64,000 nucleotides of DNA from Deinococcales bacterium (lineage in GTDB: Bacteria; Deinococcota; Deinococci; Deinococcales; JAAFIG01), in the NCBI GenBank assembly GCA_031414595.1, contig JANNVX010000098.1, positions 1 through 64,000 on the forward strand. Direction: 5' to 3'. Numbering within the stretch: the first letter of the stretch is position 1; each line of letters starts with the position of its first letter. The position numbers and the translations under genes are program-made. The notes below the pieces were generated by a model that did no database searches, had not been told where the DNA came from, and saw only the letters and a list, made by a program, of their open reading frames with translations. This document shows positions 5,154-11,695 of the stretch, piece after piece.

Positions 5154-5306
5154 ACCAATCTATTTGGTGATTGGGAAAAGCCAAACAAGATACCACTGCG
5201 AATTCGGGATGTTGACAGTGGTGCGGATGGCTTTTTGTATGTTCTGACCGATGAAAGTAATGAGTAATTGCTGCGTTTGACACCTTAATTCTCGAGCTAC
5301 TGCGCT

Positions 5307-5975
5307 GTGATGGATACAAGACTCATTGAAAATTTGGATTTCTCAAAATCTTGTAAGATACACGCAATTATGGATAACCAAGGTTCAATTTCTCCAATTG
5401 CATTAGATGAACGAATTCTTGGTTTCCTCGAGCTTTTAGAAAAACCTCAAAAGGATTCAACGAGTTTACTTCGCACTCGAGTTTCTGGTTTTGAACGAGC
5501 CGAACAATTAGCCCTTCAGATAGCACGCAAACACAGTTTTCAAGAAGGTTTACAGGAGTTACTAGAAGCCTTACAAATTTCACGGCATCCAAAAACCCAA
5601 AAAGCATTGCACGACTTACTGCACGAAAATATTACCCCATCAGAACTGAGTTTGGTTTTGGAGCTCAGAACAATTTGGAGAGAATATCCTGAGTTTAGTG
5701 TCGCTATTGCCAGTGTTTTTAGTACAGGCTCAGCCCGACGAGAGCATCTTTCATATCGTTTGGCGCTTCGCTTGATACGCCATTTTTCGTATTTTCCTAG
5801 TTGCGATGATGTTATTTTTTTAGTTCAAGATTCGCTCCAGCTTTGGCGTGATGATGAAGATTTACTGCGTAGATTTAAGGTGTTTCAGGATTACTTATCG
5901 TTTTCGGTCGCTAACCCAGAATTACTGACGCTTGAACTCGAGGTTATGAAAAGCCAAGGACAAAACCATGACTGA
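5307..5975 (+). CDS. Hypothetical helical protein coupled to the SNF2-like gene
   Basis: 222-aa ORF whose end overlaps the ATG at 5968. No family recognised. Confidence 0.7.
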   Translation: MMDTRLIENLDFSKSCKIHAIMDNQGSISPIALDERILGFLELLEKPQKDSTSLLRTRVSGFERAEQLALQIARKHSFQEGLQELLEALQISRHPKTQKALHDLLHENITPSELSLVLELRTIWREYPEFSVAIASVFSTGSARREHLSYRLALRLIRHFSYFPSCDDVIFLVQDSLQLWRDDEDLLRRFKVFQDYLSFSVANPELLTLELEVMKSQGQNHD

Positions 5976-8790
5976 AACAACTTTTGATGCTGGAAGACCT
6001 TATGCTCCTATACCTGGCGCTCCTGTTTGCGAAAAAATCTCTGGAAATACAGGTTTCGTAGAATCCACACGCATGACTGAACAAGGTATTCAGGTGCGTG
6101 TTATTTGGGGGCAAAAACAGTCAGAATCTTGGCATAGACTTGATGCCTTAAAAAGTGCGCTTCAAATAGGCAACGAAGTTCGTGAAGTACCATACTTGAG
6201 TAATAGTGTACCAATGGGTTTAGGCACGGTTATTGCAAGCCGTGATTTAGGTGGTACTCAACAATTTTTAGTTGAGTTTTGGCAACGAAATGAGCGCCTT
6301 TGGCTACCTTGGCAAAATCTACGTTTTTTTAACAGTGCAAGCCAACGATTCAAAACCCAACAAATGGCAGCTTCCGATAACACTGAGCGTTTTAGACTAC
6401 GCGCCCTCTCTCATGCCTTGGAACAATGGAATTTAAGTACCGGTGCATTAGAAACAATGGATATTGACCCACTGCCACACCAACTATATTTAGTGGATCG
6501 GATACTCTCGAGTGGAAACCTAAACTGGATGATCGCTGATGACGTGGGTCTAGGTAAAACGATAGAAGTCGGTTTACTGATTTCTGCCTTAAAACGACGA
6601 GGTATGAAACGATTTTTATTGGTCGTTCCAGCAGGACTTACCCCACAATGGAAAGAAGAAATGCGAGAACGTTTTGGCTTGGATGATTTCCTAATTTATG
6701 GGCGTGATTTCAAAACCGAAAGAAGCGAAGATTGGCGAAGATACGATGCCGTTATTGCCAGTATGGATCGCTTAAAATCCGAATCTCATCTCGAGAATAT
6801 TCTAAAAGCAGCGCCATGGGATGTGATTATTTTTGATGAAGCCCATAGGTTAACTCGTTCTCAGTATGGTGAAAAATTCTCGAGCAGTGAGCGTTTTCGA
6901 CTTGCTGCCAGTTTACGCCCTAGAACCGATGCAATGCTGCTTTTAACAGGCACACCACATCAGGGGAAACAAGATCGTTTTACAGCACTACTTGAACTTT
7001 TACGTCCGAAGGAACAACAAGCCATCAGGCGCATCAGTATTGCCCCTGAATTTTTGAGAAACATCATTATTCGCAATCGAAAAGCCGATGTGACTGATGC
7101 CGATGGAAATTTTGTTTTCAAAGGAAAAGTCACTCGTACTATTGCTGTCCCAAGCAGTGATTTAGAACGTCAGTTTGACGAGCAGCTACGGCACTATTTA
7201 CTCGAGGGTTACAACGCAGGACGACAAGGTGGCAATTTAGGGCGTGCCATTGGCTTTGTAATGACCATTTACCGCAAACTAGCTGCATCGAGCTTATATG
7301 CTATTTTGACTGCCCTCAAGAAACGGCGTGAACGTTTACTGCAAGAATCTAAGGAAGTCTCGACCGAAGATGATGAAGGTGATATGCGTTTTGAAGGCGA
7401 ACAAGACGAACGCCAAGCACAATTTTCCCCAGCCAAAGCCTTTTTCGATGGTGAGTTGGCACGGCTTGATGTCTTAATCTCTTTAGGGAACGCGCTTTTG
7501 CCGTTAGATTCAAGACTACGATTATTTATGGAAACCATGTTGAAATCGGTTTTGACAAAAAATCCAGACCGACGAGTTCTGATTTTCTCGGAATACAAAA
7601 CAACTCAGCAATATCTCGAGAAGGCTTTAGCTGCCCAATTTGGTTTGGATAAAGTACATACCATTCATGGCGGTAAAACCATTGACCAGCGCCGCGAAGC
7701 AATGCAGCTTTTCGAGGAACAAGGACAATTTCTTGTTTCTACCGAAGCTGGCGGCGAAGGCTTAAATTTGCAGCGTCGCTGTCATACCATGATTAACTTT
7801 GATTTACCTTGGAATCCAATGCGTTTAGTGCAAAGGGTAGGGCGTTTATACCGTTATGGTCAGCAACAAACCGTTTTGGTTTTTAATATGCAAAGTCCGC
7901 ACAGTTTAGATGATGAAATTCTAGGCATGATGTATGAACGATTATTCGCCGTTGCAAAAGACATGGTGACTGTCGGCGACGAGTTCCGACGAGAACAATT
8001 AGAAGATGATATTTTGGGCGAATTATGCGAAGCCCTCGAAATCGAAACCATACTCGAGGATGCCTTACAGCATGATATTCAACGTAGCCAAGAGCGCATA
8101 GATGAAGCGCTTAGAAAAGCTAAAGAAGGCGCAGGACTACAACGCGATTTACTCAAATACGCTTCTCGTTATGACCACACTTTAGACAGTGATAGATTAC
8201 AATTAACCTCTAAACACCTTAAAGCCTTTACTGAAGGGATGTTCAAAGCTCTCGAGTATCAATTTGAAGTGGTGGACAAAGGACGCAGTTGGCTACTAAG
8301 TTTATCACCAGAAGATGCCCGAAAATTGGGATTAAAAACTAAGACTCGAGTCACGACCGAGCGAGAGGTTAAAGCACTAAAGCCAGAAGCTCATTTGCTC
8401 GATGCACAAAGCTCATTACTTAAATTTCTATTGGAAGAGGCTCGAGATATAAAATTTGGCGGATTGGTTGCCAATGTTGCTGGCTTACCTAACCAAGCTG
8501 TCATCAATGCTTTGGTACGCTGGCAGAATGAGCGGGGTGTCTTAATGCGCCAAGAATATACTGCCCTATGTGTTTCAGAAGATGGCACAGTTCAAATTAA
8601 CCCACCAGAATTTAAGGCATGGCTGCTCGAGCCAAAAGCAGGAAGTGCAAAACTACACCAGCAAAGCACAGTCCTTTTGGAAATTGCACAAAAAACCTTA
8701 GATAGCAGGTTGCAAGACCTGAGTCAAGGCGATTTATACCCTTCAGGACGTTGGATTTTTAGTGCAGCATGGATAGACGATTCAATCTAA
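5968..8790 (+). CDS. SNF2/RapA-like SF2 helicase-ATPase
   Basis: [18 protein letters not shown] (Walker A), IIFDEAH (DEAH box), [19 protein letters not shown] and [21 protein letters not shown]. Confidence 0.93.
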
Positions 8791-10965
8791 GAAATCGCGT
8801 AATTTTCGAGTACGCCCCTCACTATACTTCAGCTTACCTATTGCTTTTTTTTCGATTTGGCGGATACGCTCTCGAGTTACATTAAAATGCTGTCCTACTT
8901 CTTCTAATGTATACTCAAATCCGTCAATCATACCCATACGAAGTTTCAATACCATTGCATCCCGCTCAGGGATTCCCCTTAATGCAGTATTCAGACTTTC
9001 AGTAAGAGCATTACTCATGGCTATTTCAAGAGGTATTTCATTGTTTCCGAAATCCCAATTTGTATCATTTTGAAGTATCTCAAGTGAAAAAGGCTTTTGT
9101 GAAACTTCAAGTGTTTTTTCAACCTTGTCTATGTCCCAATCTAACCCCATTTCTTCTACAATCTCTGACACAGTAGGCTCTCGAGACAATTCTTGTTGTA
9201 ACTGTCGTACAGTACGATTGAGATTATTAATTGTTTCAACCTTGTGGACAGGGATACGAATAGTACGCGCTTGGTCGGCAATTGCACGGTTAATTGCTTG
9301 CCTTATCCACCATGTTGCATAAGTGCTAAATTTATGACCCCGTTCGTATTCAAATTTTTCTGTGGCAGTCATCAAACCTTGATTACCTACTTGGATTAAA
9401 TCCATAAAATCCATTCCGCGCCCGACAAAGCGTTTGGCAATACTGACTACTAAACGTAAGTTTGCTTCAATAAGATGCTGCTGTGCTGCTTGACCATCAC
9501 ATACAAAGGTTTTTAAGTTATATTTTTCTTTGGGGTCAGTTACTTCTAACTCAAGCCTTGCTTTTGCCTTTTGCCCCCGCTCAAATCGCATCGCCAACTC
9601 AGTTTCTTGTTTTCGAGTAAGTAAGGCTACTGAACCAACATCCCTCATGTATAAATCAAGCGGATTGACCAGAATTGGATCGGAAATACGGAGTTGTTGA
9701 ATTTTTTCTTCAATGTCTGAGTAATCATTCATTGATGGCTCATTCTCAAAATCTTCTTCGGTTGGTTCTGTCATCTCGAGTCCGAGACTAAAATCATCAT
9801 CTAACTCGAGAACATTCAAATCCGAGTTTATATCGTCAAAATCAATTTCGTCGTCGTCTAAATCCTCGATAAAAATGCTCTCAGATTGCAGGTACTGCAT
9901 CAGGTCATCGAACTCGTCGATTTCGTCTGGATTTAAGCCCAGTTCGCGCAACGCCTTACCAAGTGCATTGGCAGCATCGGCATTGTTCAGCATCCCATCT
10001 TTTTTGCCGCGTCTGACCAAATCTTTAATCGCATCAGTATCTACCCAAGCGCGTTTTTTGCCGCTTGGGACTTTACCCGCTTCAGATTTTTCTTGGTCTG
10101 ACTTGGCAGCAACTTTGGTGACTGGTTTGGCTTCAACATTTTCGTTATTTTCGATTTCTAAATCTAGGTCATGCCCATCTGATCTTTCTAAAGCAAGTTC
10201 TTCTGGTAATGAACTCTTAAAACCTGTTTCTTGTAATTTAATCAATTGCTCGGTAACAAACTGATTCTCTAAATACGAATAGCTCTCGAGTTGTGGTACT
10301 TGAGCGCGTAATGCCTCTCGAAGCTCAGTTTCTGACCAATTGGTACAACCAAAATACCAGCCTTGTGTGGTGTAGATATTCTCGAAAATTGGGTAGCAAT
10401 GAGCCAAATCATAGGCATCAATACGCAAAACTGCTGCCAAATCATCAAGTAAAATAAACTCTTTTTGATTGTTAAGATAAGTTCGGGCTTCCAGAATATG
10501 TAGACGGCTAGGTTCGTAAATAACCCAAGTATCATTTTCCAAAAGCTGTACTTTGACATTTTTATGATTTAGCAATGCCCATAAAGTTATTAAATCATTC
10601 CAATCATTAACGCTAGTATCTAAGAAATTTAGCCTGATGGTAGAAACTCCTGCACGATTCAAATCCGCACTTATGGATTCAAACAATAACCATCGGTGAG
10701 ATTGATTTATTAAAATAATTTTTGCCTCAGCCATATCATTCTTAACGACATTTTCAGCAACTCGAATACGTTGGACAGGCTTTTCGGCAGTATTGTCTAG
10801 CCATCGGCTTTCTACTAATTTTTTTACAAGAGTTACCGAAAAATCACCCAATACAGTGTCATATAAAATGTCAACATCAAGAGTCTTTACTTGCAATTGA
10901 AGTCTCTGAACAGAAAAAGACCATAATTGTGTACTGACCGTACTCAAGTAGGATTCTTGACTCAT
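8782..10965 (-). CDS. Divergent RpoD/SigA-like sigma-70 factor with long N-terminal extension
   Basis: Region 2 [14 protein letters not shown]...[30 protein letters not shown]; region 4.2 [20 protein letters not shown]; Thermus/Deinococcus-like tail [10 protein letters not shown]; about 300 aa precede region 1.1. Confidence 0.88.
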
Positions 10966-11092
10966 ATATTTACTTGTGTAAAATTATAACAGGTCAATGT
11001 CGCTCTTTCGTCGCACATAGTATAAATTGCAATTTATTAATAAATTATATGCTATCAAGTAACTCATATTTTCTAGCAACATTTAGCTAGGT

Positions 11093-11635
11093 TTAGAACT
11101 CGAGTCCATCGTAAACTTGTGCGAGCGTTAAAGTTGCCCCAATACAAGGAATGTCAATTTCACCATTTTCTTCAAGAGTTTCTACTATCCAAACTTCACC
11201 TTGGCGTTTATAAACCACGACCAGCTTCGTGTGCTGCTCAACCAAAACATACCGTTCTACACTTGGTATTCGGGTATACTCACTGAGTTTTTTGTGACTG
11301 TCGGTATCGGCAGTGCTTGCCGAAATCACCTCGAGCAGAAAACAGGGGGCATCCTCGAGTCGAGGGTCATTGTTATCAAGGCAGTTAATCATAATGTCCG
11401 GGTAGCGATAACGGGTACTCGAGACATGCAACTGTATGGTTTTAGTCTGAAAGCGGCAGCCCTTGGCTCTGGTCAGTGGGGCTAAAGCAAGGGTGATGTT
11501 CAAAACAATTTCTTCATGGCGTTTACTTTCCCCTGCCATGGCGTGGAGTTCGCCATCCACATATTCATGGCGAATTTCAGCGTATTGTTCTTGTTCTAAG
11601 TATGTTTCTACGGTCTGGTTCTCGAGGACAGTCAT
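11093..11635 (-). CDS. Uma2 (DUF820) family endonuclease
   Basis: RHEYVDGELHAMAG, YRYPDIM, LLEVISAST and K..EY..IPS...YVLV. Leaderless TAGACT 6 nt upstream. Confidence 0.9.
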   Translation of the reverse strand: MTVLENQTVETYLEQEQYAEIRHEYVDGELHAMAGESKRHEEIVLNITLALAPLTRAKGCRFQTKTIQLHVSSTRYRYPDIMINCLDNNDPRLEDAPCFLLEVISASTADTDSHKKLSEYTRIPSVERYVLVEQHTKLVVVYKRQGEVWIVETLEENGEIDIPCIGATLTLAQVYDGLEF

Positions 11636-11665
11636 AGAATAAGTCTAGCAGAATTTTCAAACCAT

Positions 11666-11695
11666 AAAAAAGCGCGAAGATAAAACTCTTCGCGC
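11666..11695 (-). terminator. Intrinsic terminator of rpsA
   Basis: GCGCGAAGA/TCTTCGCGC stem followed by a T-run on the minus strand. Confidence 0.8.

Follow-up and report, generated by a model that had tools for sequence, protein, structure and literature searches.

We analysed a stretch of 64,000 nucleotides (nt) of a Deinococcales bacterium (assembly GCA_031414595.1, contig JANNVX010000098.1, positions 1 to 64,000), which we call the window and number as contig C98 of a source genome of 4.49 Mb that is 94% complete. Our subject is a block of three genes in the window, encoding a small helical protein (the partner), an ATPase of the SNF2 family and a long sigma-70 factor, here termed sigma-X. 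An earlier, sequence-only reading had described this block as AT-rich, with open reading frames (ORFs) of 222, 940, and 727 amino acids (aa), the first two coupled and the third converging on the second with a 9-nt overlap, and as being without a methylase or nuclease. The coordinates and overlaps agree with our own, neither kind of enzyme is detected by Pfam or PADLOC, and the GC content of the block is 41.4% against 46.9% for the window, placing it second lowest of 292 equal-length sliding windows (median 47.0%). The partner and SNF2 genes overlap by 8 nt. The features of the block are:

5307–5975, plus strand: small partner gene (P0001), ORF of 222 aa
5968–8790, plus strand: SNF2 ATPase gene, ORF of 940 aa, its start overlapping the partner gene
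8782–10965, minus strand: sigma-X gene, ORF of 727 aa
8782–8790, no strand assigned: overlap of the convergent SNF2 and sigma-X 3' ends, 9 nt
8785–9675, minus strand: sigma regions 1.2 to 4 of sigma-X, from Pfam and alignment to SigA
9813–10150, minus strand: region 1.1-like segment of sigma-X (residues about 272–384), with no counterpart in G005 (a genome of the same genus) or in other sigma-X
10216–10965, minus strand: N-terminal domain of sigma-X (residues 1–250), a decayed sigma-region-4-like segment plus a domain X, from hhalign
5291–11094, no strand assigned: interval absent as one piece, a likely empty site, from one contig of run X8 that joins 5290 to 11095

Pfam places the SNF2-rel_dom and Helicase_C families in the 940-aa protein and sigma-70 regions 1.2, 2, 3, and 4 in the 727-aa protein, and has no match in the 222-aa protein. 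No terminator-like site was found between the convergent SNF2 and sigma-X genes, promoter-like sites are not enriched in the block (11 seen, 12.8 expected), and no terminal direct or inverted repeats bounding it were found. The genes on the left are ordinary ones for a GH1 glycosidase, TerC and a NAGPA-domain protein, and those on the right encode a Uma2-family protein, ribosomal protein S1 (rpsA) and a binding protein; in the six neighbours scanned, PADLOC finds no family besides Uma2/PDC-S03.

Our data support the view that the three-gene block is a real accessory module, maintained by selection and gained or lost as a unit. Partner, SNF2, and sigma-X follow one another directly in the window, and in G005 the contig carrying the partner and SNF2 genes and the contig carrying the sigma gene share an exact overlap of 47 nt at the convergent junction and have the same flanks. 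A contig of 2304 nt from run X8, which belongs to another study, also spans the SNF2 3' end into sigma-X. For the other relatives, linkage was read from cluster records that list contigs of equal size: a size of 44923 is common to partner P0007 (61% identical), SNF2 P0133 (77%), and sigma-X P0012; 20735 to P0009, P0015 (61%), and P0138; 9501 to P0027 (73%), P0139, and P0140; sizes 53119 and 9807 pair P0016/P0136 (59%) with P0150/P0141; and 4386 is common to P0134 and P0013, where a cut SNF2 and a cut sigma would nearly fill the contig. Such agreements are too frequent for chance. Six of the eight sigma-X clusters are tied to SNF2 (P0147 was unmatched among the 120 SNF2 proteins listed, and the contig of P0011, at 3.6 kb, is too short), and the link to sigma is confined to the closest SNF2 relatives (59–79% identity). 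We therefore regard the three genes as very probably linked.

Within the genus, the partner was found in two of eight genomes, the window's own (G000) and G005, and the whole N-terminal domain of sigma-X in the same two. G004 has only a 73-residue part of that domain, joined to a NUDIX domain, G001 has an SNF2 fragment on a 1.9-kb contig, and none of the three genes was found by these queries in G006 and G007, each 94% complete. The X8 contig that joins 5290 to 11095 skips 5804 nt, with six other letters between and 67 letters on its shorter side; an X6 contig, a single low-depth record aligned at 80% likeness, joins 5257 to 11687 and is without both the block and the Uma2 gene. The two contigs are suggestive of empty sites. 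In neither G003 nor G006 does one contig span the site, as TerC and NAGPA of the left flank are separated by contig from Uma2 and rpsA of the right flank, and an empty site is unreadable there. The ratio of non-synonymous to synonymous substitution rates (dN/dS), obtained with a Nei-Gojobori script from the window genes and their G005 orthologues, was lowest in the partner (0.07), followed by SNF2 (0.10) and sigma-X (0.32), values that indicate purifying selection on all three genes.

The SNF2 ATPase has many relatives (4246 at E<=0.001 among 8000 scored), and the matches listed show 45–51% identity over 92–100% of the length and come from Proteobacteria and others. In 12 aligned homologues motif I (GLGKT, residues 194–198) and motif II (D290/E291/H293, DEAH) are invariant, and the N- and C-terminal regions are conserved besides the motor. 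Its closest solved relative by profile is RapA (E 1e-44), to which it aligns in the core and over some of the C-terminal region; the N-terminal 127 residues gave no profile alignment. Pfam Tudor_RapA had no match in the protein at E<=0.01, and a language-model look-alike cluster with the Tudor_RapA families scored 0.88 at the N-terminus, under the 0.9 line; the two Tudor-like beta units suspected there are for this reason a lead only. RapA/HepA, the Swi2/Snf2 ATPase associated with RNA polymerase in E. coli (PDB 4S20, 6BOG), is similar in overall length to the SNF2 protein of the window, which differs from it in having an obligate upstream partner gene and an accessory distribution; RapA is not known to have a partner gene. 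As a member of the RapA family itself (NCBIfam NF003426) the window protein was rejected, since it scores 187.3 bits against a cut-off of 576, with its best stretch at 121–348.

The best named PADLOC matches of the SNF2 protein are to helicases of known defence systems, namely BrxHI (322 bits, positions 31–665 of 933) and DrmD (298 bits), with BrxHII also among the best. None of these assignments could be upheld. The score against DISARM DrmD (NCBIfam NF038317) is 319.4 bits for a cut-off of 610, and none of the neighbours (GH1, TerC, NAGPA, Uma2, rpsA, binding protein) has a DISARM match; the BrxHI match is partial, and the neighbours include zero BREX genes with which BrxHI or BrxHII might be associated. 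The score is also well below the curated cut-off for DpdE.

The small protein upstream of SNF2 is less easily placed by homology. Its distant homologues are 201 aa long and begin at its Met22 (position 5370), from which we put its length at 201–221 aa, with possible starts at 5307/5310 or 5370. A word-indexed search returned only six similar proteins, a first metagenome scan with the P0001 alignment returned zero matches, and a scan of genome contigs with P0001 returned the G005 contig and one weak match in Gemmatimonadaceae. An AlphaFold (AF2) model built from 77 sequences is all-helical, with a mean confidence score (pLDDT) of 84, and no clear relative of it was found among solved folds (best Foldseek PDB E 0.94; best VIA Z 5.5, in the range of helical noise).

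A broader view of the pair came from 80 metagenome loci holding full-length SNF2 relatives (44–50% identity), whose ORFs were searched with the small-protein profile. At 77 of them the ORF directly upstream of SNF2, on the same strand, contains near its C-terminus a partner domain of about 150 residues, with a gap between the two genes of -106 to +117 nt; the three loci without it have less than 500 nt of contig upstream. The partners in these cassettes are 157–928 aa long, and 11 of the 76 scanned match tetratricopeptide repeat (TPR) families. Deinococcus-like genomes of the same order have a long partner of 1025–1415 aa beside an SNF2 that is 46–47% identical to that of the window, and the partners seen in the sigma-linked clade are all short (201–221 aa). 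The window's pair falls within this unnamed cassette, P0001 covering the domain and the SNF2 protein (P0002) aligning to the family over 95–100% of its length, and P0001 is a minimal partner with little beyond the conserved domain.

The surroundings of the wider cassette are also recurrent. Among the 49 loci whose downstream sequence reaches 1.5 kb or more, 12 have a type III-like methylase (~930 aa; PADLOC MTase_III, 474–496 bits) right after SNF2, nine loci additionally have a ResIII protein of ~1045 aa, and other neighbours that recur are type I hsdRMS, GmrSD, WYL regulators, NERD-kinase, and RhuM. Judged by sequence, then, partner and SNF2 are a reduced form of a widely distributed two-gene cassette, most of whose surroundings consist of genes for restriction-modification and other defence functions, a setting that is context and not proof of defence. 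Cassette relatives resemble BrxHI/BrxHII (BREX), DrmD (DISARM), and ArmA (ARMADA) in sitting beside methylases and ResIII proteins. The window's block differs from these systems in that none of PglX/PglZ/BrxC/BrxL, DrmA/B/C, or a YprA-like ArmC is nearby, and its SNF2 family has a conserved partner of its own.

It is conceivable that the block is what is left, after the loss of methylase and nuclease, of a larger known system: DISARM, BREX type 2/3 or type III-like restriction-modification assisted by an SNF2 protein. We consider this very unlikely. The PADLOC matches to BrxHI/BrxHII and DrmD and the methylase and ResIII genes that follow part of the cassettes would agree with such a descent, but the DrmD score lies far below its cut-off, no drmA/B/C, pglX/Z, brxC/L, or methylase gene lies within 5 kb upstream or 9 kb downstream of the block, 37 of the 49 loci are without a methylase directly downstream, and the three genes are intact and under purifying selection. 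The sequence-only reading had named descent from DISARM or another known system as something that would count against its proposal, and neither family cut-offs nor neighbours point to DISARM or BREX. Its further idea of a mobile system of three genes has stood in part: the three genes do recur together in near relatives, are jointly missing from most genomes of the genus, and form an accessory unit, but the small protein and SNF2 are not special to this module and the sigma factor is a lineage-specific addition. The co-occurrence that it proposed to check for the small protein was borne out for SNF2 (77/80 loci) and failed for RpoD-like genes (0/80), which accompany the small protein in its closest relatives only. 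That no SigA-like sigma gene is found at any of the 80 wider loci leads us to conclude that sigma is not needed for the core activity of the cassette.

The likeness to RapA invites another explanation, that the block is a housekeeping-type module for RNA polymerase maintenance, and not one of immunity, in which a RapA-like recycling ATPase and its cofactor would act with a spare sigma under stress (salt, desiccation, or DNA damage). RapA is indeed the closest solved relative, including part of the C-terminal region, the weak Tudor_RapA lead at the N-terminus points the same way, and the block has no effector nuclease; set against these are the RapA equivalog score (187 against 576), the methylases, ResIII, hsdRMS, and GmrSD that adjoin the wider family, the patchy, accessory distribution, and the very fast evolution of sigma-X described below, which would be unusual in a maintenance factor. 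On balance we think this explanation unlikely. A RapA-like plan is by itself no argument for a role at RNA polymerase, because BrxHII and ArmA share that plan in defence: passages in two papers present BrxHII and ArmA as RapA-like SNF2 helicases of defence systems, and helicases of this kind as parts of BREX type 3, DISARM, and ARMADA (PMC12839542, PMC12458937), and a passage in the former describes the domain plan of BrxHII as parallel to that of RapA (PMC12839542).

The genome has two long sigma-70 genes, sigma-X and a 577-aa gene on contig C116. The latter scores 387.0 bits in RpoD_Cterm, against a cut-off of 354, and has ordinary neighbour genes, and we assign it as the housekeeping SigA. 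Sigma-X belongs to the sigma-70 family, with PF00140, PF04542, PF04539, and PF04545 all above their cut-offs, but was rejected as a primary RpoD/SigA as its score in the same model (TIGR02393) is 291.1 bits. Its residues 278–727 share 58% identity with the SigA of this genome. One stretch of 29 residues is identical in the two proteins and another of 11 residues is kept; we take these to be the -10 and -35 DNA-contact segments. The stretch after 'SLE', presumably region 3.2 (the 'finger'), is altered in sigma-X and seven residues shorter than in SigA, both in this genome and in G005.

The extent to which sigma-X has diverged is evident from comparison with the SigA core (312 residues), which is 98–99.7% identical within the genus and 91–95% within the family, whereas the sigma-X proteins are 41–76% identical to it. 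In a tree of 31 rows, from which the cut or partial sequences L122, L137, and L142 were omitted together with L143/L146 (the same genes as P0003 and P0010), seven sigma-X nest within the SigA of family f1, beside genera g1 and g3, with a support of 98 by the Shimodaira-Hasegawa-like approximate likelihood ratio test (SH-aLRT). Their end branches are 0.13–3.26 against a median of 0.03 in the same tree; a single origin of sigma-X has a support of 78 and is neither shown nor rejected. These comparisons identify sigma-X as a lineage-specific duplicate of the family's own SigA that carries a foreign N-terminal domain. Its synonymous divergence between G000 and G005 (8785–9240 against L094) is a mosaic, ~0.10 in the 5' part and 0.5–1.4 in regions 3–4, and this jump suggests recombinational exchange of the 3' part. 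The region 1.1-like segment was considered as a possible assembly chimera and rejected, its nucleotide identity to sigA being only 76%, with many synonymous differences; nor is the segment a very recent exchange.

Two kinds of known sigma factor offer themselves for comparison. MzaA (NCBIfam NF041931, 726 positions), which belongs to the sigma-70 family and is part of the Mza anti-phage system, is similarly long and like sigma-X (727 aa) has a large N-terminal extension. However, sigma-X scores 297.3 bits against the MzaA cut-off of 800, only profile positions 459–715 align, and the host SigA scores higher (324), so that we reject this assignment; no other Mza genes turned up in the PADLOC scan of six neighbours, which included no search by name. 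Group 2 (principal-like) sigma factors include RpoS, the cyanobacterial SigB–E, and the Streptomyces HrdA–D. Like these, sigma-X arose by duplication of the primary sigma and has kept both regions 1.2 to 4 and the SigA-like contact stretches; it is unlike them in having a foreign sigma4-like+X domain, an accessory occurrence (2/8 genomes), fast evolution, and a tie to the SNF2 cassette.

The origin of the N-terminal domain could be traced further. The relatives of sigma-X residues 1–280 were five by word-indexed search and 14 among 1.84 billion representatives (phmmer E 1e-4 to 1e-9). Twelve of the relatives were newly found: four are further long sigma factors that share this N-terminal domain (P0138, P0139, P0141, and P0147), seven are proteins of 270–504 aa with a sigma region-4 helix-turn-helix (HTH) at residues ~45–95 followed by the shared domain, and one (P0140) has no Pfam match. 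By hhalign the N-terminal domain of sigma-X matches the family of such proteins, which we call sigma4-HTH+X, with 99.0% probability (E 3.3e-18, 203 columns) and belongs to it; the region-4 HTH of the family aligns to sigma-X residues ~33–90, where the motif is decayed. Thus about 220 N-terminal residues of sigma-X are homologous to the sigma4-HTH+X proteins (P0142–P0149 and those at the G268, G193, and G008 loci described below), which differ from sigma-X in that they stand alone, are 270–660 aa long, have a region-4 HTH that is intact and end in an additional C-terminal part, where sigma-X has a whole sigma factor. A suspected likeness of that C-terminal part to HARE-HTH had no Pfam match at E<=0.001.

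A model of the sigma-X N-terminal domain (pLDDT 77.5) found no clear relative in fold searches, the best matches being to ESCRT-II winged helices in Foldseek (E 0.02) and at Z 6.4 in VIA. Residues 155–211 weakly resemble the winged helices of MarR, IclR, and NiaR (Z 4.4–4.9), and the modelled domain probably includes a winged helix. In G004 (L100:2376-3641) we also observed a 421-aa ORF that consists of a NUDIX domain, the last ~75 residues of the sigma N-terminal domain and a region 1.1-like segment, followed by a stop; it is either a fusion of another kind or a sigma-X relative that has been broken.

Full-length sigma4-HTH+X proteins (E<=1e-88) are present in 10 of 364 Deinococcota genomes, with three weaker matches, and 11 loci were examined there. 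Three of these (G268, G193, and G008) have the setting of a defence locus. In G268 the gene immediately precedes those for PbeA, PbeC, and a DndB-like protein, and a transposase adjoins. In G193 (L114:751-12083) one strand carries, in a row, SNF2 (986 aa), sigma4-HTH+X (661 aa), HTH, PIN, an N6/N4 methylase, and ResIII; this SNF2 is of a different subfamily, 26% identical to that of the window, and the row resembles type III-like restriction genes that enclose an SNF2 gene and a toxin-antitoxin pair. In G008, a genome of the window's own family (L113:716-4884), the gene separates cas5/cas6e from cas1/cas2 in a type I-E CRISPR-Cas locus; a regulator might be expected at such a position. At a further locus, in G075, Abi_2 lies two genes away. 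The domain therefore seems likely to belong to DNA-binding regulators, of which a minority are embedded in helicase-based defence loci.

With both halves of the block described, it can be asked whether they need have anything to do with one another. The partner and SNF2 could be a self-sufficient pair and sigma-X a group-2-style sigma of stress or stationary phase, the two being adjacent by descent. Consistent with this, none of the 80 wider loci has a sigma, sigma-X keeps its SigA-like promoter-recognition stretches, SNF2 and sigma-X are convergent and not co-transcribed, and the sigma-linked lineages seem to be all in one family. Yet the adjacency has outlasted a divergence that leaves the sigma N-terminal domains 20–29%, the sigma cores 41–76%, and the SNF2 proteins 59–79% identical; the SNF2 cassette and sigma-X agree in which members of the genus have or lack them, and one contig lacks all three genes together. 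Moreover, relatives of the N-terminal domain lie beside helicase-based defence genes in two other genomes, and group 2 sigmas usually belong to the core genome, unlike sigma-X with its two of eight. We find independence of the two halves somewhat unlikely.

Our preferred reading, to which we give a probability of roughly 0.45, is that the three genes are one functional unit with a conflict-type role that acts through transcription. Both the action on RNA polymerase and the role in defence are what we infer from the sequences. According to this reading, sigma-X would bind core RNA polymerase, competing with SigA at ordinary promoters, while its N-terminal domain would gate or sense, and the partner-SNF2 motor would in this clade use sigma-X as its targeting or sensing arm. 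Sigma-X may thereby stand in for the long, variable (often TPR) arm that the partner carries in other lineages, the main hint of this being that the short partner occurs with sigma and the long partner without. The partner-SNF2 pair would then act on complexes of RNA polymerase with DNA, remodelling or evicting them, most likely when phages or mobile elements attack. Complex prediction of the sigma N-terminal domain with P0001, with SNF2 1–165, and with SNF2 700–940 gave 0.14 (mark 0.32), which speaks neither for nor against binding.

Several observations weigh against a three-gene unit with a conflict-type role. The cassette occurs without sigma outside this clade, as the 80 loci attest, and all the sigma-linked lineages probably belong to one bacterial family, so that their repeats are not independent and the adjacency could be inherited; four of the linkage sets, moreover, rest on equal contig sizes and not on DNA that was read. 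The X8 contig taken as an empty site is a single record, with a depth of 2.2, aligned at 80% likeness. No nuclease, methylase, or other effector was found inside the block by Pfam or PADLOC, no PADLOC model matches the partner, and the flanks of the block are housekeeping genes except for the one Uma2 gene. At least one defence-type neighbour (hsdRMS, GmrSD, WYL, NERD-kinase, or similar) is present at 33 of the 80 cassette loci, which is a raw count with no background rate to set it against. Among the 11 sigma4-HTH+X loci, seven are without any neighbour of defence type: alaS adjoins at two, MBL-rhodanese and ABC-transporter binding-protein genes are close by at two, and the remaining three have other genes or unannotated ones beside them.

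A more specific version of the proposed unit is feasible, although we judge it distinctly unlikely. Sigma-X could be a guard or decoy copy of SigA that mimics SigA to phage hijackers or inhibitors and evolves fast in an arms race with them, replacing the sensor arm of the partner; once sigma-X was bound or displaced, partner-SNF2 would strip RNA polymerase from the DNA and transcription would shut down. If true, immunity would here consist in surveillance of the transcription machinery itself.

Some further observations concern the surroundings of the block. The Uma2-family gene on its right (window 11093–11635) matches the PADLOC candidate PDC-S03 (E 6.5e-22). On its left, the spacer 5186–5306 is 80% identical to G000:C26:30790-30919, and its in-frame end resembles the C-terminal part of a gene of sugar dehydrogenase type (a reading from sequence); it is probably a gene remnant that dates from an insertion or from a deletion. 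The palindrome CTCGAG is present in 326 copies in the 64-kb window, at a density of 5.1 per kb and a median spacing of 144 nt; no other palindromic hexamer has more than 46 copies, and GGCC is present in one copy. CTCGAG is scarcer in the three-gene block (3.27 per kb), with a single copy in the part that encodes the sigma N-terminal domain. The window-wide pattern was also seen in sampled loci of genera g1, g5, g3, g4, and g2 of the family (L001, L010, L101–L104, and L125–L131) and was not found in sampled loci of other families.

A literature search of titles and the starts of abstracts, with most subscription journals outside its scope, returned no SNF2-sigma module and no SigA paralogue of this kind. 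The analysis names two uncharacterised families: the helical partner domain, which is universal in the SNF2 cassette, and the sigma4-HTH+X domain, which is found at Pbe, SNF2-methylase-ResIII, and type I-E cas loci. If the three genes do cooperate, a RapA-like motor and a copy of the primary sigma, both of which have relatives that bind RNA polymerase, would be joined in one accessory mobile unit. Such a unit, if real, would offer a handle on the targets of RapA-like SNF2 helicases in defence islands and on why sigma-70 family proteins, MzaA among them, are encoded at some defence loci.

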